From positions 51,394 through 71,393 of the IMG/VR virus record IMGVR_UViG_3300042882_000732: a stretch of DNA of 20,000 bases, one strand, 5' to 3'. This document shows positions 7,040 to 20,000 of this stretch, in pieces; positions within the stretch are counted from its first letter, which is position 1, and every line of letters starts with the position of its first letter. The stretch comes from an uncultured virus (IMG/VR IMGVR_UViG_3300042882_000732) (taxonomy: Duplodnaviria > Heunggongvirae > Uroviricota > Caudoviricetes). Position numbers and translations under genes: made by a program. A model generated the notes under the pieces. It was not told where the DNA came from, did not search any database, and saw only the letters and a program-made list of their open reading frames with translations.

Positions 7040-7080
7040 ATTGTAATAGGATTGTAATAGAATTGATAAATTTATACACC
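7040..7080 (-). promoter_or_regulatory. Candidate late promoter GGTGTATAAA plus tandem 10-bp repeat
   Basis: tttatacacc at 7071-7080; ATTGTAATAG at 7040-7049 and 7051-7060. Confidence 0.45.
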
Positions 7081-9117: not shown

Positions 9118-9562
9118 ATATTTTTCTCATGAGAGCTTCTGCTATTTTTTCTGCATTATTGGCAGATCCACAAAATAATATTCTTATACCAAAATATATT
9201 TGAAATTCGTTAATATTTTTAATAATAAATGCTGGAGATATTTTTAATTTTTCCCAAACATGTCTAGGAACATTAGATCCAACTGGAAAATTATATATAT
9301 CCTCCAAATTAAATTCAAATAACATAAAAGGATATTTGTATTCTTTCATTCTATTAAGAACATCTTTAAATCTTTTTTCAGTAATATTGTTGGCAATTTC
9401 ACTAACGCTCTTTTTCCTCTCAATGCATAGGATATTCTCTAATCCTTCTATGCTATAGTCTCCAGTGTCTAGTTTTCTTGAGGCAGTAGCTTGATATTTG
9501 AACTTCCAAGGCTGTTGCTCTCTAGTATCAACTATGATTGTAAAATCAGGATAACTTGTCAT
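9083..9562 (-). CDS. ERCC4-domain (XPF/Mus81-like) nuclease
   Basis: IIVDTREQ, LDTGDYS and IERK motifs. Confidence 0.85.
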   Translation of the reverse strand: MTSYPDFTIIVDTREQQPWKFKYQATASRKLDTGDYSIEGLENILCIERKKSVSEIANNITEKRFKDVLNRMKEYKYPFMLFEFNLEDIYNFPVGSNVPRHVWEKLKISPAFIIKNINEFQIYFGIRILFCGSANNAEKIAEALMRKIYEVERKDKPIF

Positions 9563-9824
9563 TATTTTTACTCAGTATGATTCTTAAAAAGGCCACCTCG
9601 TATTGCTCTTCCATCCCTTTTATTGTATTGTGATGATCTCTGCACAAAGTTATTCCATTTGAGGTAACGAATCGTAAATTAGGATAATCGCTCCATTTTT
9701 TGATATGATGAGCATTTAATTTTTTATTACTAGAGCACCCTGGCCACTGACAAGTGAATTTGTCTCTTTTATAAATATCAGATCTCCACTTTTTATATAA
9801 AGGATCATCAAAATTTCTAAGCAT
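9546..9824 (-). CDS. HNH endonuclease, packaging-associated type
   Basis: RDKFTCQWPGC...AHHI...NGITLCRDHH; 92 aa, near terL. Confidence 0.88.
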   Translation of the reverse strand: MLRNFDDPLYKKWRSDIYKRDKFTCQWPGCSSNKKLNAHHIKKWSDYPNLRFVTSNGITLCRDHHNTIKGMEEQYEVAFLRIILSKNNDKLS

Positions 9825-10814: not shown

Positions 10815-11642
10815 TCATTCCTCGTCCTTAATAATGCTTTCTGGAGTTAATAAAGGTCTATCTAATTTTTTATCATTATAAGAATGGTATTCTTGTAATT
10901 TATTCTTAAATTTTTCTGTAGCCATGGATAAAATTTCCATTTCTCTTCCTTCTCGTTCTCTTACTTCTTCATCTTCAAGCATTCTAATTAGTCCAACCCA
11001 GCTGCTTTTCCCATCTTCTATCCTTTTGATTCTTTGTTCTCTCGTTGCTTTAAGATCCTTACTGATTTTTTGCTGCTCATTAAGTAGTTTTGTATACTCG
11101 TTAGTATAATTAGCAATGCTATTACGAGCAAAGCTAAGTTGAGTTTCAAGATTGGCTAATTTTGGAATATCTCTTTGATCTTCTGGTTTTTCATATTCTT
11201 TATCTACTTGTCTTTGAAGTTTTTCAGTTTCTGCTATGTGCCTTTTTCTTTCTTTCATACTACGATTTATTAGAATATCTATTGTAATAAACTGTTTAAT
11301 TTGTAATTCTTCTGCTGGTAATACGTCTTCTCTAAATTGTTTAATAAGACTTACCCAAGTATTTTCGAAGTATTCTAGTTCGCCAGTGTCTTCGTCAAAT
11401 TGTCTTTTTATTTCAGACCAAAAGTTTTTACTGTGTAATTTAATTTTTAAATATTCTATTTCTTCTTTAGAATCACCAGCTAATAATTGTTCCTCATTAA
11501 TAAATCTTTTAATAGGATCTATATTTCTATTTAGATTATCTGCTATGCTTTGCAATGGCAGTCTTTGAACATTATCTCTGATGTATCTTTCTTCATCAAG
11601 ACTTAATTGTCCTCTTTTTTTAGGAACTTGTTTACTATCCAC
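10815..11642 (-). CDS. HTH + coiled-coil protein, candidate terminase small subunit
   Basis: N-terminal HTH-like LPLQSIADNLNRN, long helical region, upstream of terL. The TerS assignment is positional only. Confidence 0.4.
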   Translation of the reverse strand: MDSKQVPKKRGQLSLDEERYIRDNVQRLPLQSIADNLNRNIDPIKRFINEEQLLAGDSKEEIEYLKIKLHSKNFWSEIKRQFDEDTGELEYFENTWVSLIKQFREDVLPAEELQIKQFITIDILINRSMKERKRHIAETEKLQRQVDKEYEKPEDQRDIPKLANLETQLSFARNSIANYTNEYTKLLNEQQKISKDLKATREQRIKRIEDGKSSWVGLIRMLEDEEVREREGREMEILSMATEKFKNKLQEYHSYNDKKLDRPLLTPESIIKDEE

Positions 11643-12286
11643 TCGTTATCCTCCATTAATTTTTGAATATGTTTTTGCAATTTAACTAAATTTTGTTTTG
11701 ATAACTTTTCCCCATTTTTTAATTTGCAATAGTATTCTCTATATTCTGTCTCTATATTTTGATCTAGAAAATCTATAATCTCTTTATTTTGGATAGAAGA
11801 TAATAGGTTATTTTCTGAAAAAATAGGATTATCTATTTCATTATCAATATACGTTGGTTGCATAATATTTTTCTTAGCATCATTTCTAGCTGCCCAAGCC
11901 GCATATAAGTCACAATCTTTTTTATTAGTATATTTAGAGCATTGATTATTTGAACACTTGTATGCTTTATCAAAAAGGGGACAAGTAAAACATGGCTTAT
12001 CTGGTCTCTGGTAATTATTTCTTTTATAATTGAAAAGTCGATTTCTTACGTGGGTCCACAGAAAATTTTCTAATGGCCTAGAAGAGTCGTATTTTTCTAA
12101 TCCTTCTAAAGCAAAAATAGCAGCCTGCTGCTTCATATCATCAAATTCATGATAGCCAAACTTGAATTTATGGCCTAGTCTTTTTGTTATATTATCTAAT
12201 ACCTTTAAAAAGTCCTCTTCGGAAACATCTTTTGGTAAAGATTTATTATTAGTTATTTTTAACTTTTTCTGTTTCTTTTGTCTCAT
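11603..12286 (-). CDS. Sigma70-family-like factor (region 2) with Cys-rich insert
   Basis: DDMKQQAAIFALEGLEKYDSSRPLENFLWTHVRNRLFNYKR resembles sigma region 2; followed by CxxC-x8-C-x4-C-x8-C. Confidence 0.7.
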   Translation of the reverse strand: MRQKKQKKLKITNNKSLPKDVSEEDFLKVLDNITKRLGHKFKFGYHEFDDMKQQAAIFALEGLEKYDSSRPLENFLWTHVRNRLFNYKRNNYQRPDKPCFTCPLFDKAYKCSNNQCSKYTNKKDCDLYAAWAARNDAKKNIMQPTYIDNEIDNPIFSENNLLSSIQNKEIIDFLDQNIETEYREYYCKLKNGEKLSKQNLVKLQKHIQKLMEDNEWIVNKFLKKEDN

Positions 12287-12420: not shown

Positions 12421-12474
12421 TTGCGTAAAGTTAGCAACTCGTTACTATTATATAGTTTTATACACTTTAGTCAA
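12421..12474. promoter_or_regulatory. Overlapping opposed sigma70-type promoters
   Basis: Minus: TTGACT(12474-12469)-16-TATAAT(12452-12447), with AGTGTATAAA in the spacer. Plus: TTGCGT(12421)-16-TACTAT(12443). Confidence 0.55.
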
Positions 12475-13121: not shown

Positions 13122-13150
13122 TGGATATCTTTCTATATTTGACTAAAGAG

Positions 13151-13180
13151 TGGGCCAGTTTTTACTGGTCCATTTTTTTT
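13151..13180 (+). terminator. Rho-independent terminator
   Basis: TGGGCCAGT-TTTT-ACTGGTCCA followed by T8. Confidence 0.85.
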
Positions 13181-13750
13181 ATCTTTTAATAACTCATTCT
13201 GAGTTGCTAAAAATTATGTGGCCACGTCTTTCTGCATAATCCAGTTGCCGCGTTATTAAAAGATGGTAAGCCCAATTAGCTTATTTAAATATATGTCATA
13301 GGGATCTTGCTACTTATGAATTTATGATTTGGTATTTGTGGTGCAGATGGGAGTTAATATCACCAAAAAATAAATAATTATGTAAACTGGCCAATTATAA
13401 TAATAGGGGTGAGATTTTTTAAAAAATATTTGTAATTGATTCTTAGGTTCTATGATGATAAAGATTCATGAATATTATTTTGTGGTGCAGGATGGTGGGG
13501 CAATATGGCCAATTGGTAGTAAAAGTTTGTGTGATTTAGAACTGGGGTCTTTAGGTATATGGATATGGTGATTATGGATACAATATAAAAGATTATTATG
13601 GGGGAATTAGGCTAATAAACTGGCCAATTATATTATAGAGTCCCCTATTGTGTTTGTACCACCCCGGGTTTTATGGGAAAATCATGGGAGTCCTTTGGAA
13701 AACAAAAAAACCCCCTGGGCAAACCAAAGGATTTTTATAAGGCTATGGGG
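13181..13750. repeat. Non-coding region with dispersed direct repeats
   Basis: TAAACTGGCCAATTATA at 13383 and 13616; TTTGTGGTGCAG at 13335 and 13479; further GCCAATT copies; no ORF in track. Confidence 0.7.
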
Positions 13751-13837
13751 CCAATTTTGACGTAAAGTGTTGTAGGGTATGGGTTTATGTATAATCGGGT
13801 GATTGATACTATCTTGTGTTTAAGAGAATAATATATT

Positions 13838-13853
13838 TGGCACGAAATTTGCT
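13838..13853 (+). promoter_or_regulatory. sigma54 -24/-12 site
   Basis: TGGCACG-AAAT-TTGCT, full consensus with GG-N10-GC. Confidence 0.75.
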
Positions 13854-13887
13854 CTAAAAATATTTTTATTTGGCACGAAAATATATT

Positions 13888-13927
13888 TCAAGATTTGTCT
13901 TGCAATGGCCGATAAATATGGTATAAT
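13888..13927 (+). promoter_or_regulatory. Overlapping sigma28-like and sigma70 promoters
   Basis: TCAAG-15-GCCGATAA; TTGCAA(13900)-16-TATAAT(13922) with extended TG. Confidence 0.7.
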
Positions 13928-13954
13928 AGCAGCACACAAGAAAGAAAGGCCAAA

Positions 13955-14092
13955 ATGCTGACTCTCATTCAGGTTGGTAAGAAGTATAAGGTATATAGGA
14001 TGGATTCGAATAAGAATGATGGGAAAAATAGGAAGTTGCTTGGTACGTTCAAGAATAGTGAAGAAGCCATCCGATTCATGAATGCCTCTTGA
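13955..14092 (+). CDS. 45-aa AP2-like microprotein, paralog 1
   Basis: MLTLIQVGKKYKVYRMDSNKNDGKNRKLLGTFKNSEEAIRFMNAS; purine-rich RBS; homologous to 15508 and 16461 ORFs. Confidence 0.8.
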   Translation: MLTLIQVGKKYKVYRMDSNKNDGKNRKLLGTFKNSEEAIRFMNAS

Positions 14093-14117
14093 CAAGTAAG
14101 GGAATAAGGTATATAGT
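14089..14117 (+). promoter_or_regulatory. sigma70 promoter
   Basis: TTGACA-17-TATAGT; the -35 contains the upstream stop codon. Confidence 0.75.
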
Positions 14118-14141
14118 ATGATCACTCTACAGGAAAAGAAA

Positions 14142-14330
14142 ATGAATAGCCTCGACAAGATTATGGCCGCTATGCGTGCTGGCAAGTATGGCAGTGTGAT
14201 TGACCCAAAGGGCAACGCTCATGTGGGCATCATCAATGCTATCATGCGTGAGGATGGTAGTGGGCGTAACTGGATTGTGAGCATTACTAACAAGACAAAA
14301 AATGAACAAGTATTCATACATGCTACCTAA
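14142..14330 (+). CDS. Hypothetical early protein
   Basis: MNSLDKIMAAMRAGK..., after AGGAAAAGAAA. Confidence 0.7.
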   Translation: MNSLDKIMAAMRAGKYGSVIDPKGNAHVGIINAIMREDGSGRNWIVSITNKTKNEQVFIHAT

Positions 14331-14452
14331 GGGGGGTATGTTAAATTTAGAAAAATGGGGCGGCCCGATTTGACGTAAAGTATTGCTGTATATAGACTTA
14401 TGGCTAATCATATGATCGACACGATGTTATGTTTAAGGGAATACTATATTCT

Positions 14453-14541
14453 TGGTATGACATTTGCTACTGGTATCCTTACGACATTGTAAGGAAACTT
14501 TGTGCTTGCAATCTAAAGTGGATTCTGTATAATGACGATAT
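14453..14541 (+). promoter_or_regulatory. sigma54-like site, palindromic operator, overlapping sigma70/sigma28-like promoters
   Basis: TGGTATG-ACAT-TTGCT (14453); CCTTAC-N6-GTAAGG (14477); TTGCAA(14506)-16-TATAAT; TAAAG(14514)-15-GACGATAT. Confidence 0.7.
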
Positions 14542-14563
14542 AAGAGAAAAGGGAGAAAAAGAA

Positions 14564-14728
14564 ATGACATACTTCGCTCAAATCGTAGACGCTTGGGATT
14601 GTGAACTGGATTTCATCGGCCCGTTTTATACTGAGGATCAGGCAACTACTGCCGCTTTCGATAAGTGGGATGGTGAGGATGGGTGTAGGGTAAATATCAT
14701 CAAAAGGCTTCCGGCTTTTGCTCACTGA
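14564..14728 (+). CDS. Hypothetical small early protein
   Basis: MTYFAQIVDAW...FIGPFYTEDQA; RBS GGGAG; start reassigned from 14429. Confidence 0.65.
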   Translation: MTYFAQIVDAWDCELDFIGPFYTEDQATTAAFDKWDGEDGCRVNIIKRLPAFAH

Positions 14729-14748
14729 AAAAATATTTTCTAGTGGGG

Positions 14749-14776
14749 TTGACGTAGGATTGCCGATAAGTATACT
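14749..14776 (+). promoter_or_regulatory. sigma70 promoter with GCCGATAA in spacer
   Basis: TTGACG-16-TATACT. Confidence 0.65.
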
Positions 14777-14793
14777 AGGGAAAAGGAAAAGAA

Positions 14794-14988
14794 ATGACAC
14801 TGAATACAGAAATCTCGACAACGTATGATGGTAAGCGATATACGGGCTTGGTTGTAGAAATCAAGAAGATGAGCAATCGTGAGTTGATCACGATCATGAT
14901 CGAAGATGATACGCGGAATGATGGCATAGGGTATCGTAGCCTTTATGCCGATAAGATGAGCGAAACTTCCGAAAACCTTTTTGCATAA
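14794..14988 (+). CDS. Hypothetical early protein
   Basis: 64 aa; promoter and purine-rich RBS upstream. Confidence 0.7.
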   Translation: MTLNTEISTTYDGKRYTGLVVEIKKMSNRELITIMIEDDTRNDGIGYRSLYADKMSETSENLFA

Positions 14989-14998
14989 GGATCATACA

Positions 14999-15235
14999 AT
15001 GAGCAATGACTTTGTATACGATATGAGCGAAATCAATGAGGAAGATATGTTCAAGGCTTGGGAAGAAATGGTAGCCGAAGATGGTAGCATCTGGGAAACG
15101 GGATACGGGGACGATGACGATTATATTCCGGGCCTCGATGACGGAGAGGGCTATGATTCGATCATGGGTGACGAATACCCCGAAACGGATGATGAATGGC
15201 TCGACGATTTCCAAGGCGAGGAGGAGTTTGCCTAG
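14999..15235 (+). CDS. Highly acidic small protein
   Basis: MSNDFVYDMSEINEED...WLDDFQGEEEFA; RBS AAGGA; a single Lys and no Arg. Confidence 0.7.
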   Translation: MSNDFVYDMSEINEEDMFKAWEEMVAEDGSIWETGYGDDDDYIPGLDDGEGYDSIMGDEYPETDDEWLDDFQGEEEFA

Positions 15236-15363
15236 GGGGATACACCCCCCACTAGGGGGAAAGGCTTGACGTAAACCATTGCTGCATAAGCATTTACAGC
15301 AAAGCCGCGGGCTCAGGTTTGACGTAAAGTATTGCTACATAAGGATTTGCGGCGAATCGCTAC

Positions 15364-15486
15364 AGCAAACGGTGTGCTAAAAGAAAAAATGTTTTTTGGC
15401 ATGATATTTGCTGAAGATAACCTTACGATATTTTAAGGAAATATTTTACTTGCAATCTAAAGAATGACCGGGTATAATGTCGATAT
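15364..15486 (+). promoter_or_regulatory. Back-to-back sigma54-like sites, operator, overlapping sigma70/sigma28-like promoters
   Basis: Minus TAGCACA-CCGT-TTGCT (15379-15364); plus TGGCATG-ATAT-TTGCT (15397); CCTTAC-N6-TTAAGG (15421); TTGCAA(15450)-17-TATAAT; TAAAG(15458)-16-GTCGATAT. Confidence 0.7.
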
Positions 15487-15507
15487 AAGGAATAGAGGAG
15501 AAAACAA

Positions 15508-15660
15508 ATGAACACTTCGCTCGAACAGCACGGTAAGGTTTTCAAGGTATTTCAGATTATTTCCGGTGCGTATGACGGGAAAAATCGTAAGTTACTAGGC
15601 AAGTTCAAGACTTCCGAAGATGCTATACGCTTCATGAATCGTATCTCTTCGTCTAGGTGA
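15508..15660 (+). CDS. 50-aa AP2-like microprotein, paralog 2
   Basis: MNTSLEQHGKVFKVFQIISGAYDGKNRKLLGKFKTSEDAIRFMNRISSSR; RBS GAGGAG. Confidence 0.8.
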   Translation: MNTSLEQHGKVFKVFQIISGAYDGKNRKLLGKFKTSEDAIRFMNRISSSR

Positions 15661-15663
15661 AAA

Positions 15664-15873
15664 ATGAACAGCAAAACGATTGCAAAAGAGTTGAAAAAGA
15701 TAGGCTACACGCTCAAGCGTACTTCCGATGTTGAAGCGCGTTGGATGGTTCGTTCAGATGTGCTTACCTACCATTGGGATTTCAAAGATCTGAAAGGCGT
15801 AGAGCGTTTCATGGTTGACGAGCGTGCCATGTATAGGTACGCTAAGGCGAACGGTGCTACTCTTCGCAAATAA
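15664..15873 (+). CDS. Hypothetical early protein
   Basis: 69 aa, starts 3 bp after the upstream stop. Confidence 0.65.
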   Translation: MNSKTIAKELKKIGYTLKRTSDVEARWMVRSDVLTYHWDFKDLKGVERFMVDERAMYRYAKANGATLRK

Positions 15874-15884
15874 TAAGGGGAAAG

Positions 15885-16094
15885 ATGCAAGTTTTCGATC
15901 ATAGACTTTTGGTTGCTGTTCCTGCGAACAAGTGGATTGGAGAATGGATTCAACGTGACCCATCCCCTATTTATAGGGGGACGCTGGCGGCACAGTTGCG
16001 ACTTATACGCAAGAGGCACGGAACCCCCCACGCGAAGGGGTATCGAGACCATATGGTGTGGATGGGGAGCTATCCCCCCAAGTATAGGGGGTAA
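15885..16094 (+). CDS. Hypothetical basic early protein
   Basis: 69 aa; RBS AAGGGG; stops just before a palindrome pair. Confidence 0.55.
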   Translation: MQVFDHRLLVAVPANKWIGEWIQRDPSPIYRGTLAAQLRLIRKRHGTPHAKGYRDHMVWMGSYPPKYRG

Positions 16095-16193
16095 TTAGAC
16101 GTAAACCCTTGATGGATAATCATTTACGAAAAATCCGGGACCACCGATTTGACGTAAAGCATTGTGGCGTAATGACTTATGACTAGTGAATAT

Positions 16194-16428
16194 AGCAAAT
16201 ACTGTGCCGCGGAATAAAAAATTTTAAGCCTAAAAAAGAGGCATGGTAAGATGGGTAATCCGTTGCAAAATGCTACAATGGTAGTGTTTGACGGCCAAAA
16301 TCACTAACGCAAAATGCTACAGGGTGTTGCAAAATGCTACGCTTAAAAAGGGGGATCAAAAAATGTCATAGCGTTTTTCCCGAGCGAAACGCAAAAAAGA
16401 ATAATCTATGTTTGGCACACCGATTGCT
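16194..16428. promoter_or_regulatory. Divergent sigma54 sites flanking three enhancer-like repeats
   Basis: Minus CGGCACA-GTAT-TTGCT (16209-16194); GCAAAATGCTAC at 16265, 16309, 16329; plus TGGCACA-CCGA-TTGCT (16413). Confidence 0.7.
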
Positions 16429-16460
16429 CTATATATAGGTATAAGAAAGAGAGAGTGAAA

Positions 16461-16604
16461 ATGGAAACGCTGGTTCTAATCGTCGTAAAGGGTAAGTATA
16501 AGGTTTATAGGGAAACCAAGTATCCCAACGGATATTCCCGTAGGCTTCTGGCAACCTTCAAAACTTCTTACAATGCCGAAAGGTTCATGAACTCTCGCCC
16601 ATAA
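16461..16604 (+). CDS. 47-aa AP2-like microprotein, paralog 3
   Basis: METLVLIVVKGKYKVYRETKYPNGYSRRLLATFKTSYNAERFMNSRP. Confidence 0.75.
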   Translation: METLVLIVVKGKYKVYRETKYPNGYSRRLLATFKTSYNAERFMNSRP

Positions 16605-16674
16605 GGGGGGTATGCAAGGCGAGAAAAGTTTCCTAGAATCATTCCAGTATCACCAACCAAGAGAGAAAAAGAAA

Positions 16675-17004
16675 ATGGCTACCAAGTTCAAGATTATCGA
16701 AGATGCCAAGCGTCAGGTTCGCATGTGCTTTCTTGGAATCGCAATCCCTCACCAACCATCACTCGCTGATGGGGTATATGGCCCGATCCGTAGCGAGAAG
16801 GTTTTGAAGTTCAATCGCAAGGCGTTGCGTAATGCTGGTAGTATCAAGGCTGAAAAAGCCGATCCCCGCTATAAGGGGGGTGACGATCTTATGATCGTAA
16901 AGGTTGGCAAGCCAGGTTCGGCTGAACGTAAGGCCGCATTGGCCGCACAGTATGAGGCGATTCTTGCTTGTGGAGAGGAAGTCTCCCCCTTCTCGGAGGG
17001 GTGA
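16675..17004 (+). CDS. Hypothetical early protein
   Basis: MATKFKIIEDAKR..., after a purine-rich tract; start reassigned from 16612. Confidence 0.65.
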   Translation: MATKFKIIEDAKRQVRMCFLGIAIPHQPSLADGVYGPIRSEKVLKFNRKALRNAGSIKAEKADPRYKGGDDLMIVKVGKPGSAERKAALAAQYEAILACGEEVSPFSEG

Positions 17005-17193
17005 CATCCGTACACTAGTGCTCAAAGATTTGATGATACAAAATCTTGACATCTAATCATTTAGAAAAATGCGGGCGGACCCAGTTTGATCTAAAGCGTT
17101 ATGGCATATATACTTACGACTAATATGCTGATCGATACGATCTTCTGTTTAAGAAAATAAAATATTTTGGCACAAGATTATTTTTATTTTTCT

Positions 17194-17235
17194 CAAAGAT
17201 TTTCTTATTGACATGACGATAATATGTAGTATAAT
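17194..17235 (+). promoter_or_regulatory. Overlapping sigma28-like and consensus sigma70 promoters
   Basis: CAAAG-16-GACGATAA; TTGACA(17208)-16-TATAAT(17230). Confidence 0.75.
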
Positions 17236-17261
17236 CAAGGTATCATAACGGAGAGAAACAG

Positions 17262-17561
17262 ATGAGCAGTACGAAGCGTGAAATGATTGAGCGGATTGCG
17301 GAGCGGGTGGGTGTGACGGGCGAGCAGGCTCGTGAGATCGTGCAAGCCACACTAGACAACATGATCGAAACGCTCTCTACCACTGGTCGCATCGAACTTC
17401 GCAACTTCGGTGTGTTCGTAGTCAAGAGGGTCGCCCCTCGCAACGCTCGCAATCCTCGAACGGGTGAGAGTGTGATGGTGTCCGCTCACAACGTGGTCAG
17501 GTTCAAGGCGGGTAAGGTGATGGATGCAGCAATCCAGAACGATTCGCTACAACCGGCTTGA
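17262..17561 (+). CDS. IHF/HU-family DNA-bending protein
   Basis: TKREMIERIA...RIELRNFGVF...ARNPRTGE...VRFKAGK signature. Confidence 0.93.
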   Translation: MSSTKREMIERIAERVGVTGEQAREIVQATLDNMIETLSTTGRIELRNFGVFVVKRVAPRNARNPRTGESVMVSAHNVVRFKAGKVMDAAIQNDSLQPA

Positions 17562-17697
17562 GTAAGTCAGGGCTTATTTTGTATCACCACAACCTACAGG
17601 GTTGGCAAGGTGGGCTATAGTCAGCGTAAATGTAGGCAAAACGTAAAATGGAGGGGCCCGATTTTTCATAAAAGATTGTGCGATAAGTACTTGCGAA

Positions 17698-17764
17698 CCT
17701 TACAGTATTGTAAGGAAAAATATTCACGATTACCCCTTGCATTGGCCGATAATGTATGTATAAT
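17698..17764 (+). promoter_or_regulatory. Palindromic operator plus overlapping sigma28-like/sigma70 promoters
   Basis: CCTTACA-GTAT-TGTAAGG (17698); TCACG-16-GCCGATAA; TTGCAT(17737)-16-TATAAT. Confidence 0.65.
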
Positions 17765-17803
17765 CGTGGCATGATGATCGCGACCACCAACGGAGAGCAT
17801 AAG

Positions 17804-17989
17804 ATGCTGAACGACTTCGACGAAGTGAATGGTGTTCTGGCCGACCTTGCCGAGCGGGGTATCGTCGAGCCTATGGTCGAGCCGATTGATGATCCCAATA
17901 TGGAGATCAACTACTGGGATTGGGCAGATATTGTGGGTATTGTTGACGAGTTGACTCCGAATGAACCATTTTGGGCAAATATATACTAA
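17804..17989 (+). CDS. Acidic small protein
   Basis: MLNDFDEVNGVLADL...; RBS GGAGAG; start reassigned from 17756. Confidence 0.65.
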   Translation: MLNDFDEVNGVLADLAERGIVEPMVEPIDDPNMEINYWDWADIVGIVDELTPNEPFWANIY

Positions 17990-18054
17990 TGAACGCTCTT
18001 CTTTTTATCGTGGCATATATTGGATTGTGTTTTTGTGTTCTTTGTAAGGATTAG
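17989..18054 (+). CDS. 21-aa hydrophobic micropeptide
   Basis: MNALLFIVAYIGLCFCVLCKD; TAATG coupling; fills the gap between neighbouring ORFs. Confidence 0.5.
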   Translation: MNALLFIVAYIGLCFCVLCKD

Positions 18055-18056
18055 TT

Positions 18057-18326
18057 ATGAGTCACCCTGATCCTTTGTTCGATCCCGATAACTCTTATGA
18101 GGATGATGACATGAGCAGTCACTTTGACGATTATCAATATGATTACCATGACGCTTTCTATGGCGAAGATAGTTCGGCCTATCATGCCGATGCTGATCAC
18201 GATGACGATTACTCTGATCACTATGATGACAGCATGGATGGAGATCACGACAGCGCTATGGGGTCAGTAGGCTGGGCCGAAGATGAATACTATAATCCTT
18301 CAATGGATGACTATGGTGACTGGTGA
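18057..18326 (+). CDS. Asp/Tyr/His-rich acidic protein
   Basis: 89 aa with no Lys or Arg; RBS AAGGA. Confidence 0.7.
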   Translation: MSHPDPLFDPDNSYEDDDMSSHFDDYQYDYHDAFYGEDSSAYHADADHDDDYSDHYDDSMDGDHDSAMGSVGWAEDEYYNPSMDDYGDW

Positions 18327-18709
18327 TTATGTAATATATTATGACAATTATGGCATAAGCATATACATTTGTTTATTTCTGTCATGATAGTATCCCACCC
18401 GTGTTTTTTACCAACCAACTGAATAACTCCATTTTTCTTTTGTGATGGGTCGGTATGATGCCATACGAGAGAGCGAGAATCATCATATCCACAATGTAAG
18501 CAAGATTTATCTTTCATGTATTCATCATATAGAATCCTTATTTTATTTCTACGACTTTTAGAATACTGATTGATTTTATCTTTTGTTTTTGATCTATATT
18601 CCGATTGTTTTTGGTTCACCATAGACCTATGTTTGCTCTTGTATCTTTGGTTTCTAATCTTGTAAGACTCTTTATTTCGCTGATATTCTTGTGGATCATA
18701 TTTTGCCAT
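18311..18709 (-). CDS. Free-standing HNH (homing-type) endonuclease
   Basis: CLHCG...LVWHH.DP...KCICLCHNCH with a basic N-terminal helix; opposite strand to neighbours; AT-rich. Confidence 0.85.
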   Translation of the reverse strand: MAKYDPQEYQRNKESYKIRNQRYKSKHRSMVNQKQSEYRSKTKDKINQYSKSRRNKIRILYDEYMKDKSCLHCGYDDSRSLVWHHTDPSQKKNGVIQLVGKKHGWDTIMTEINKCICLCHNCHNILHNHQSP

Positions 18710-18736
18710 AGTACTCGTCTCCGGTATGGAAATGTA

Positions 18737-18754
18737 GACTATGGTTTATACACC
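18737..18754 (-). promoter_or_regulatory. Candidate late promoter for the HNH gene
   Basis: Minus strand GGTGTATAAACCATAGTC. Confidence 0.5.
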
Positions 18755-18876
18755 AATATTATAAGAATCTAACTACTTGTTGCATAAGACTTTACGACGA
18801 ATCGGGCCGCACGATCTTGACGTAAACTCTTTAGGCTCAACGACTTAAAGCAACTCTAGAATCTTTTATTTTGTTG

Positions 18877-18913
18877 TTGACTTCTAAAGTTTCTTCCTGT
18901 ATAATGTCGATAC
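18877..18913 (+). promoter_or_regulatory. Overlapping sigma70/sigma28-like promoters
   Basis: TTGACT-17-TATAAT; TAAAG(18885)-16-GTCGATAC, reading TAAAGTTT at the -35. Confidence 0.75.
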
Positions 18914-18931
18914 AAAGGAAAAGGAAAACAA

Positions 18932-19051
18932 ATGTTTGGACTGGTATTTTTGGCGATTTTCGGTTATATGATGTATATCGAAATCGTAACCTTTTTTGAG
19001 AATCGACGAGACGAAAAAAGAATCCGCGAATATTTTAAGAATCGCGGTTGA
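18932..19051 (+). CDS. 39-aa single-TM microprotein
   Basis: MFGLVFLAIFGYMMYIEIVTFFENRRDEKRIREYFKNRG; RBS AAGGA; stop overlaps the next -35. Confidence 0.65.
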   Translation: MFGLVFLAIFGYMMYIEIVTFFENRRDEKRIREYFKNRG

Positions 19052-19075
19052 CAAAGCCGATAAGTAGAGTATACT
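19035..19075 (+). promoter_or_regulatory. Overlapping sigma28-like/sigma70 promoters
   Basis: TTAAG-16-GCCGATAA; TTGACA(19048)-16-TATACT. Confidence 0.75.
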
Positions 19076-19102
19076 TAGAACATCACCCAGAAGGAAAAGA
19101 AC

Positions 19103-19414
19103 ATGACTCACGCTGAAGCAGTTTCTATGGTTCGTGGCAAGCGGAATAAGGACAGCCGCAAGGTGGGAAACAACACCTACGCTGAAATCCTGCCGTGTGG
19201 ATCGGTTGGTATTTTGCTCCACAGCACCTATGTGGTAAAGATTCATGCTGACAATACCTATACCCTCCAGACTGGGGGTTGGCAAACCAGTACCACCAAG
19301 GATAGAATCAACCAGTATAGCCCCGTTCGTGTGTACCAGCACAAGTATGAGTGGTTCGTGAAACTGAATGGTAAGGAATATCCTTTTATGGAAGGAATGG
19401 TGGTGGGAGGATGA
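19103..19414 (+). CDS. Hypothetical phage early protein
   Basis: 103 aa, with GGWQTSTTKDRIN motif; promoter and RBS upstream. Confidence 0.75.
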   Translation: MTHAEAVSMVRGKRNKDSRKVGNNTYAEILPCGSVGILLHSTYVVKIHADNTYTLQTGGWQTSTTKDRINQYSPVRVYQHKYEWFVKLNGKEYPFMEGMVVGG

Positions 19415-19491
19415 TTTTATATCTCGCGGGTTTATATGGTGTTATTTTACTAAATACTTTTCTTTGTTGGATCATAGAAGAATGTCGCTAG
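19411..19491 (+). CDS. 26-aa hydrophobic micropeptide
   Basis: MILYLAGLYGVILLNTFLCWIIEECR; ATGA overlap with upstream gene. Confidence 0.5.
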   Translation: MILYLAGLYGVILLNTFLCWIIEECR

Positions 19492-19547
19492 TTATTGCTA
19501 CTATGTTTCTTTTTGGTTTATTTATATCTTTGTTTTTTATTACTTAA
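19482..19547 (+). CDS. 21-aa hydrophobic micropeptide
   Basis: MSLVIATMFLFGLFISLFFIT; overlaps previous ORF; weak RBS. Confidence 0.4.
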   Translation: MSLVIATMFLFGLFISLFFIT

Positions 19548-19561
19548 GTAAGGAGCCATGG

Positions 19562-19672
19562 ATGGCCGATATATATTTAGACTGGAATAGTTTCGGTGCT
19601 GGATTTATTGCTGGCCTTGTGTGTTCTTGGTTTGTTTGTGACCTGGTTTTTCCTACTGTAAAAAAGGATTAG
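19562..19672 (+). CDS. 36-aa single-TM micropeptide
   Basis: MADIYLDWNSFGAGFIAGLVCSWFVCDLVFPTVKKD; RBS AAGGAG. Confidence 0.6.
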   Translation: MADIYLDWNSFGAGFIAGLVCSWFVCDLVFPTVKKD

Positions 19673-19674
19673 GT

Positions 19675-19752
19675 ATGAAAGATGGGGATGCTATTGTTTT
19701 ATCTATTGCGTTTGTCTTCGGATGTATCGCGGCGTGGGTGGTAAACTACTAG
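19675..19752 (+). CDS. 25-aa hydrophobic micropeptide
   Basis: MKDGDAIVLSIAFVFGCIAAWVVNY; RBS AAGGA. Confidence 0.55.
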   Translation: MKDGDAIVLSIAFVFGCIAAWVVNY

Positions 19753-19763
19753 GAGACTAAAAA

Positions 19764-19829
19764 ATGTTCTATGGTATTCCTATGATTGTTGAAGTTTTAA
19801 AGAAAATGAACGACTCTAAGGCCAAGTGA
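19764..19829 (+). CDS. 21-aa micropeptide
   Basis: MFYGIPMIVEVLKKMNDSKAK; RBS AGGAG; stop abuts a palindrome pair. Confidence 0.5.
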   Translation: MFYGIPMIVEVLKKMNDSKAK

Positions 19830-19929
19830 TCTAAAGCCTTGATGCGTAAGAGTTTACGCCAAGGCCCAGCGGACGCATTTGACGCAAACTATTGAGACAC
19901 AACAACTTACGATTTTCAAAAAAATATGC

Positions 19930-19966
19930 TTGACTTCTAAAGTTTAGGCTGGTAGAATACCGATAT
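19930..19966 (+). promoter_or_regulatory. Overlapping sigma70/sigma28-like promoters for an ORF starting at 19991
   Basis: TTGACT-17-TAGAAT; TAAAG(19938)-16-ACCGATAT; leader resembles the one before 16461. Confidence 0.7.
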
Positions 19967-20000
19967 AAAGAGTAAGAAAGAGAGTGAAAAATGTTGAGTG

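Follow-up and report, generated by a model that had tools for sequence, protein, structure and literature searches.

The early promoters of phages without a polymerase of their own are usually taken to be promoters for the housekeeping sigma factor of the host. The stretch analyzed here, called the window, comprises 20,000 nucleotides (nt) and forms the end of a viral contig of 71,393 nt from a large lake phage. It carries repeated intergenic heads in which sigma70-type promoters are overlapped by a second two-box element that resembles the promoters of sigma28. Judging from the motifs, these heads are probably composite host promoters, with sigma70 and sigma28 (FliA/WhiG) promoters in the same 40-50 bp, such that either holoenzyme would start the same genes. 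The PeSL cassettes of T4-like phages are alike in that repeated near-consensus sigma70 heads precede small variable open reading frames (ORFs), as given in the accessible part of that report (PMC4122927). The repeated head and the swapped small genes are found here as well, with the same head standing before different genes. In the same part of the PeSL report, the promoters are of the sigma70 or MotA type only, and IHF and sigma54 are not mentioned (PMC4122927). A stem-loop of the PeSL type upstream of the promoter was also sought in the present heads, and the 11 candidate hairpins were no better than shuffles (z from +1.4 to -1.9). Pseudomonas phage YuA is alike in using more than one host sigma class, sigma70-like and sigma54-like, which the accessible part of its description gives as separate single promoters (PMC10914365), whereas here the sigma28-type element overlaps most sigma70-type promoters family-wide and the sigma54-type sites are mostly antisense.

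The second element agrees with known sigma28 (FliA/SigD/WhiG) promoters in both boxes, their order and their strand. According to the accessible text of PMC3333780, the gamma-proteobacterial consensus is TNAAG-N14-GCCGATA, and the hctB promoter of Chlamydia pneumoniae has a spacer of 15 nt; in the available excerpt of PMC12784957, the sigma28 promoter of P. aeruginosa fliC consists of TCTAAAG and GCCGATAA. The spacer of the phage element is 15-16 nt, against the 14 nt of the gamma-proteobacterial consensus, and GTCGATA and GACGATA are as common in it as GCCGATA; its copies also differ by lying on a phage, interleaved with sigma70 promoters in several registers. In boxes and allowed spacing, it is identical to the flagellin promoters of Pirellulales. 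The phage heads are a real, conserved variant of known promoter kinds. A literature search, with most subscription journals outside its coverage, returned nothing on sigma28 promoters overlaid on phage early promoters, and nothing on the present phage family.

The minus strand of the window encodes the terminase large subunit, virion proteins and a sigma-like protein, and from about position 13700 onward the intergenic heads are repeated, followed by small plus-strand ORFs; each head is about 150 bp long. The host-type promoters and the small ORFs suggest that these plus-strand genes form an early region. An earlier note on this DNA had listed ten sigma70-type promoters, eight of them overlapped by a second two-box element; all of these were recovered, the positions given there for the element being those of the first base of RnCGATA. 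The element can be written as YTMAAG-N15/16-GHCGATA, and in the window its AAG lies 17 or 18 nt ahead of CGATA. In class A, the CGATA -10 box lies within the sigma70 spacer (13908, 17215, 17745, and 19056), and the -35 boxes are TTCAAG, TCAAAG, TTTAAG, and a weak TTCACG at 17723. In class B, it lies directly 3' of the sigma70 -10 box (14534, 15479, 18906, and 19959), and all four -35 boxes are CTAAAG. Positions 13701-20000 contain 11 sigma70-like and 9 sigma28-like sites, where 500 approximate dinucleotide shuffles gave means of 0.26 and 0.20 and a maximum of 3. The test is partly circular because the patterns were derived from the same sites; the tests on the relatives and on host genomes are less so.

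An IMG/VR search with the sigma-like protein returned 159 relatives, of which 80 were retained, the longest contigs reaching 197-244 kb. Of the 80 loci, 56 extended for 4 kb or more into the early side; these were dereplicated to 35, several with few or no heads. The 35 relatives contain 319 sigma70-type promoters; CGATA is found at -15 to +9 of the -10 box in 217 of them, and 154 of the 217 also have AAG 17-19 nt upstream. The spacing between AAG and CGATA is 17 (47 cases), 18 (97), or 19 (11), and never 16. The registers of CGATA are +8 (82), -12 (66), -13 (28), -8 (11), -14 (9), -7 (7), -11 (6), and +9 (4), and the start of AAG moves with them, being at -35 for register -14, -34 for -13, -33/-32 for -12, -32 for -11, and -13/-12 for +8. 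Registers +8, -12, and -13 span 49, 33, and 21 distinct clusters of downstream sequence. AAG travels with CGATA, base by base, across registers, which bears out the proposal that the second element is independent and bipartite.

Strand and shuffle counts in the relatives were made on 26 regions with at least four promoters each (174 kb in total), where the element occurs 152 times in the sense and once in the antisense direction, against 2.1 and 0.8 in shuffles. The two strands of four full-length genomes carry 18/0, 13/2, 0/16, and 0/9 copies. A TNAAG -35 box followed by a GCCGATA -10 box on one strand is what the logos and the strand bias reveal; the gamma-proteobacterial spacer of 14 nt is not shared, with 4 sites against 152 with 15/16 nt. 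In relative G001, most copies lie within the 130-190 kb stretch that carries the sigma70 promoters. The class B pattern occurs in at least 145 viral stretches and in 17 stretches among 185,579 prokaryote genomes; 8 of these 17 seem to be fragments of these phages that were mis-binned, and the other 9 are single matches. The phage-like pieces (L474-L476, L479, L480, L486, L487, and L489) stand in metagenome-assembled genomes (MAGs) of mixed labels, namely Gammaproteobacteria, Planktophila, Methanobacteriota, Burkholderiaceae, Bacteroidetes, and Methylococcaceae, where they are probably mis-binned.

The distance from the -10 box to the ATG has a median of 40 nt in class B (n=83), 34 in class A (n=100), and 32 in heads without the element (n=79), the heads being non-independent. 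A second start could be accommodated in these longer class B leaders. The sigma28 start predicted from sequence follows that of sigma70 by about 9 nt in class B and precedes it by about 11-12 nt in class A. An A stands at the predicted sigma28 start, 13 nt past the C of CGATA, in 93% of 82 class B heads, the position being set by the numbering of P. aeruginosa fliC in the accessible part of PMC12784957.

The comparison with promoters of the host fliA regulon, which the earlier note had proposed, gave the same element with a spacing of 17 or 18 in 18 of 30 flagellin upstream regions of Pirellulales. Flagellin was found in 88 of 151 Pirellulales genomes, and among the 30 best-scoring loci, which were those examined, the spacing is 17 in 15 and 18 in 3, with no element in 12; the boxes are mostly CTAAAG...GWCGATA. 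The control gave 2 matches, at other spacings, in twice the sequence. The spacing 1-2 nt longer than in the consensus is that of the Pirellulales flagellin promoters, in line with an element of sigma28 type. Among 30 flagellin loci taken at the level of the phylum, 6 have a spacing of 16 and 3 of 17, and the presence of both indicates that the long spacer is lineage-specific.

The host likely belongs to the Pirellulales, as suggested by markers of the window and the relatives. The 99-amino-acid (aa) IHF/HU-family protein of the window (17262-17561, plus strand) shares 57% identity with a Planctomycetaceae homologue and 24-36% with homologues of four other genomes; its identity (49-57%) does not separate the Pirellulales families, a search of genome contigs gave no confirmed locus, and an Atlas look-up gave family names only, with thin taxa. 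Most of the best matches to the DUF1501 gene of relative G001 share 74-80% identity with it; they come from lake MAGs that carry the labels Pirellulales, Planctomycetaceae and, inconsistently, Kuenenia. A quick tree built from 59 selected rows places the 17 viral DUF1501 copies as sister to genomes of a family in which no flagellin was found (SH-aLRT 93). The GDP-mannose dehydratase gave no host signal.

In this DUF1501-linked candidate family (that of G163; L289-L293 and L344-L392), FliA is present in 75 of 81 genomes, its best PDB matches include FliA, and RpoN is present in 40 of 41. The condition under which the earlier note would have given up sigma28, a host lacking fliA, does not apply to this family, the host itself being a prediction. 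A search for flagellin gave 0 of 81 genomes, which makes the suggested rationale of motile versus sessile cells doubtful. In the accessible part of a report on planctomycetes of fresh water, flagella are listed for Nemodlikiaceae and for three further MAGs, and Vodnikaceae are not among them (PMC6461901). FlgM adjoins fliA in one locus of the candidate family and an FlhA-like domain does so in two. CTCAAG-N16-GCCGATA, as the most conserved sigma28-type promoter of the family, precedes a gene for a secreted Cys-rich repeat protein in 7 of 30 loci and in 15 of 20 regions chosen for that length; this gene has a conserved leader of about 200 nt, and its product is without Pfam or NCBIfam match. 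An N15 copy of the element precedes fliA itself in L370. Spacing 18 is the most frequent one in the family (44 of the 150 matches listed, from a total of 358). When the sigma28 pattern was counted across the whole genomes of five candidate hosts, the numbers were close to the control, and five flagellated genomes gave few matches to CTAAAG (12). These results raise the question of the role of FliA in a family with flagellin found in 0 of 81 genomes.

The sigma54-type sites were sought as TGGCAY-N5-TTGC, with up to one mismatch in the window. In the relatives, 32 such sites are sense and 75 antisense, against 0.3 and 0.4 in shuffles, and the spacing is fixed, with 107 N5 sites against 0.7 in shuffles, no N4 and 3 N6. 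The motif was above control in five of five host genomes tested, clearly in three. Upstream of the sigma70 -35 box, the antisense sites fall at distances of 31-33, 43-45, 52-56, and 63-65 nt, with a phasing of 10.5 bp (R=0.51, n=55, related heads collapsed). Most sense sites sit before a sigma70 promoter. The claim that three sigma classes are stacked in the heads holds as far as putative binding sites are concerned; as promoters it does not, given that most sigma54-type sites face away from the genes (75 of 107) and are for that reason not cassette promoters. Only the cassette at 16413 has a stand-alone sigma54-type promoter in the window, and the gene-facing layout is clear there and in relative L019. 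In the canonical sigma54 promoter, an enhancer stands 80-150 bp upstream and looping is often aided by IHF, according to the accessible text of PMC4987338. The 16413 head shares this layout, with GCAAAATGCTAC repeats 84-151 nt upstream, two of them as the near-palindrome GTTGCAAAATGCTAC, and no sigma70 or sigma28 match; these repeats are candidate enhancer sites, and the cassette would be driven by sigma54 only. It is exceptional in this, since most phage sites are antisense, arrayed, and 31-70 nt before the sigma70 -35 box. The candidate enhancer repeats occur at 84-151 nt upstream in 2 of the 35 regions. The heads of the window form repeat families, and the same sigma54 head precedes different genes in the window and in L019.

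Beyond what the earlier note had described, the heads carry IHF-type sites and a third palindrome. The IHF-type palindrome, YAA-N4-TTR-N5-YAA-N4-TTR, is so labeled for its resemblance to WATCAANNNNTTR, which we take to be the IHF consensus. The relatives have 210 copies, against 0.4 in shuffles, and 63 of 65 close pairs are spaced by 53 bp; phasing at 10.5 bp is R=0.34 (n=113, related heads collapsed). In hosts, this palindrome stands before the ihf/hu gene at 5 of 10 loci, and 2 of 5 genomes show an enrichment of it. The palindrome CTTAC-N6-KTAAG occurs 55 times, against 0.2 in shuffles, centered near -44, -54, or -65, and is phased at 10.5 bp (R=0.81, n=37, related heads collapsed); in 101 Pirellulales genomes CTTAC-N6-GTAAG is rarer than in the control, and no host regulon was found. 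These two elements and the mostly antisense sigma54-type sites, all helically phased, would probably shape or boost initiation if bound by IHF, RpoN and a further protein as their sequences suggest. In the relatives L029, L061, L070, and L028 no strict IHF-type site was found; a GCCAAAATGGC-type palindrome is present in them (20, 28, 16, and 4 copies, respectively), in many cases adjoining antisense sigma54-type sites. Either the DNA-binding protein or the host may have been exchanged.

In the sigma-like protein of the window, four invariant cysteines (C99, C102, C116, and C125) come after region 2 and are a possible zinc site. The structural model of the protein is weak (pLDDT 64) and gave no Foldseek match at E<=0.001, the hits listed being sigma factors. 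The complete relatives encode a second sigma factor of 194-222 aa with regions 2 and 4. A different motif, GGTGTA, lies upstream of genes outside the early region, at 12 of 45 in G001 (0.39 expected) and 7 of 16 in the window contig (0.15 expected), and is depleted in the early regions (16 against 46.6). GGTGTA followed by AT-rich sequence stands before structural genes, at 7074 and 4018 in the window and in G001; it is a candidate late promoter motif, and likely another target for the two phage sigma-like proteins. AGTGTAT occurs within a strong sigma70-type promoter at 12447-12474 (minus strand); this promoter is directed toward the sigma-like gene and the terminase block, and may be read both early and late.

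That two phage sigma-like proteins are available raises the alternative that the two-box element is a middle promoter for a phage-encoded sigma factor, laid over early sigma70 promoters. Pairs of early and middle promoters are known from T4 and SPO1, the second sigma factor could read two boxes, and the phages prefer a spacing of 18 while the Pirellulales flagellin promoters prefer 17. The same boxes and spacing nevertheless precede host flagellin and fliA genes, the sigma-like protein of the window was without similarity to host FliA (best E value 3.4), the second protein has only 194-222 aa, and the phage sigma factors have GGTGTA at their disposal, which is the motif used before structural genes and depleted in the early regions. 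For this last reason in particular, a phage-sigma site is unlikely. The element is most likely a host sigma28 promoter, because its spacing is that of host flagellin promoters and the host markers point to Pirellulales. The element could also be a site at which a regulator activates or represses the sigma70 promoter, or else a relic of cassette duplication, given that the heads are clearly duplicated and swapped and that the registers cluster at +8 and -12/-13 when others would be compatible with the sequence. A regulator would be expected at a single position against the sigma70 boxes, and at least six registers are seen; a relic would neither hold its spacing under single-base shifts of register nor match host flagellin promoters, and stand-alone copies of the element exist. 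Either of these is very improbable.

The earlier note had also considered a DNA sponge, in which the sites would titrate host sigma28 (and sigma54) and not serve as gene promoters. The 26 sigma28-type sites on one strand of one genome, against a handful per host genome, are compatible with this, as are the sigma54-type sites arrayed on both strands and mostly antisense; sigma54 holoenzyme forms stable closed complexes without activator, according to the accessible text of PMC4987338. A sponge has no need of orientation, yet the sigma28-type sites are 152 to 1 on one strand; the class B leaders fit a ribosome site past a second start, and pure titration does not require sigma54-type sites phased to the sigma70 promoter. 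As an account of the sigma28-type element, a sponge is quite unlikely, and titration could be a side effect, most plausibly for sigma54. Promoters that work with more than one host holoenzyme, as also proposed in that note, are the best reading of the sequences, and they would probably let the phage transcribe its genes in different cell states of the host, which is likely a planctomycete. They would serve early expression both in ordinary growth and in states with active sigma28 (or sigma54).

Several observations weigh against composite host promoters. The heads are related by descent, and p-values overstate their independence; 63 of the 217 CGATA-bearing promoters are without AAG at 17-19 nt, and several heads of L020 and L029 are without the -35 box. 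The second phage sigma factor is a possible reader of the element, the flagellin promoters favor spacing 17 (15 against 3) and the phages 18, and the spacing-18 peak of the candidate family stems largely from one orthologous promoter. The host assignment rests on the 99-aa IHF/HU protein and on the DUF1501 gene of relatives, and a 206-kb record with an identical sigma-like protein is absent from the 23 DUF1501 loci. The family signals conflict: DUF1501 points to the non-flagellated family, while IHF-type sites are enriched in two flagellated Pirellulales (65 against 19 and 55 against 17), with no such enrichment in three genomes of the non-flagellated family, where the strict pattern gave 0 of 5.

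An alternative-sigma promoter in most early promoters would show an entry programme adapted to the cell state of the host, and the motifs supply a host clue for an uncultured phage family together with a sigma28 promoter consensus for Pirellulales. More tentatively, and with considerable doubt, these 200-240 kb lake phages may have rebuilt their early region for three host holoenzymes, with sigma28 promoters inside sigma70 promoters, three kinds of head (class A, class B, and sigma54 only) before members of one gene family, and an outward-facing sigma54 polymerase parked in phase as a structural activator. The host would then be a non-flagellated freshwater member of the Pirellulales in which FliA/FlgM control a cell-state programme, including the secreted Cys-rich protein, and not motility; if so, the promoters of these phages would point to a cell state of planctomycetes that is as yet undescribed.

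Table 1. Features of the window; positions count from its first nucleotide.
Feature	Position	Strand	Detail
Phage sigma-like protein, region 2 and Cys-rich insert	11603-12286	-	gene block upstream of terminase
Single IHF-type sites	13763, 14376, 17669		same palindrome as the pairs
Sigma54-type site, sense	13838-13852	+	degenerate second copy at 13871
Sigma28-type promoter TTCAAG-N15-GCCGATA, -10 box in sigma70 spacer	13887-13914	+	sequence match
Sigma70-type promoter, class A head, overlapped by sigma28-type element 13887-13914	13900-13927	+	sequence match
45-aa ORF	13955-14092	+	one of three paralogues, 55-60% identity
Sigma70-type promoter without sigma28 element	14089-14117	+	sequence match
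Sigma54-type site, one mismatch	14453-14467	+	sequence match
Palindrome CTTAC-N6-GTAAG	14478-14493; also 15422-15437, 17699-17714		sequence match
Class B head	14506-14540	+	sigma70 14506-14533 and sigma28-type 14513-14540, CTAAAG-N15-GACGATA
Sigma70-type promoter with GCCGATAA at 14762 in third register	14749-14776	+	without good sigma28 -35 box
Two IHF-type palindromic sites, 53 bp apart	15272-15349		YAA-N4-TTR-N5-YAA-N4-TTR
Back-to-back sigma54-type sites	15365-15411		antisense 15379-15365, one mismatch; sense 15397-15411
Class B head	15450-15485	+	sigma70 15450-15478 and sigma28-type 15457-15485
Other paralogues of 45-aa ORF (45-50 aa)	15508-15660, 16461-16604	+	55-60% identity
Further IHF-type pairs	16102/16155, 17039/17092, 18770/18823, 19832/19885		same palindrome
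Antisense sigma54-type site, one mismatch	16195-16209	-	after IHF-type pair
Three copies of GCAAAATGCTAC, two as near-palindrome GTTGCAAAATGCTAC	16262-16340		84-151 nt before 16413 site
Stand-alone sigma54-type promoter	16413-16427	+	48 nt before ATG at 16461; no sigma70/sigma28 match between
Class A head before IHF/HU gene	17193-17235	+	sigma28-type 17193-17221 and sigma70 17208-17235
Class A head, weak sigma28 -35 box TTCACG	17723-17764	+	sequence match
Weak sigma54-type site	17767	+	sequence match
Class B head	18877-18912	+	sigma70 18877-18905 and sigma28-type 18884-18912
Class A head	19034-19075	+	sigma28-type 19034-19062 and sigma70 19048-19075
Stand-alone sigma28-type element (ninth)	19543-19571	+	similar copies in L050, L056, L019, L061
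Class B head	19930-19965	+	sigma70 19930-19958 and sigma28-type 19937-19965

The three 45-50 aa paralogues listed in Table 1 stand behind different heads, of class A, class B, and sigma54 only, and the 45-aa protein matched 3 unnamed homologues. Two small ORFs of the early region (14999-15235 and 18057-18326) are very acidic and rich in Asp, Glu, and Tyr, without Pfam or PHROG match, and are possible DNA mimics. HNH endonuclease genes lie at 18311-18709 and 9546-9824, both on the minus strand, one of them inserted against the direction of the early region. The capsid-like protein encoded at 1787-2809 was compared with those of cultured phages and gave no match. At the edge of the early region, about 600 nt (13143-13760) without long ORF carry repeated GGCCAATT / AAACTGGCCAATT, and the longer of these two motifs recurs once or twice in 15 of the 35 relative regions; it is possibly a genome end, a packaging site or an origin. 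Relative G001 encodes an actin-like protein that matches Volactin (L090:16662-17666, E value 3e-62), and it also carries RuvB, ferritin-like, and ClpP-like genes.

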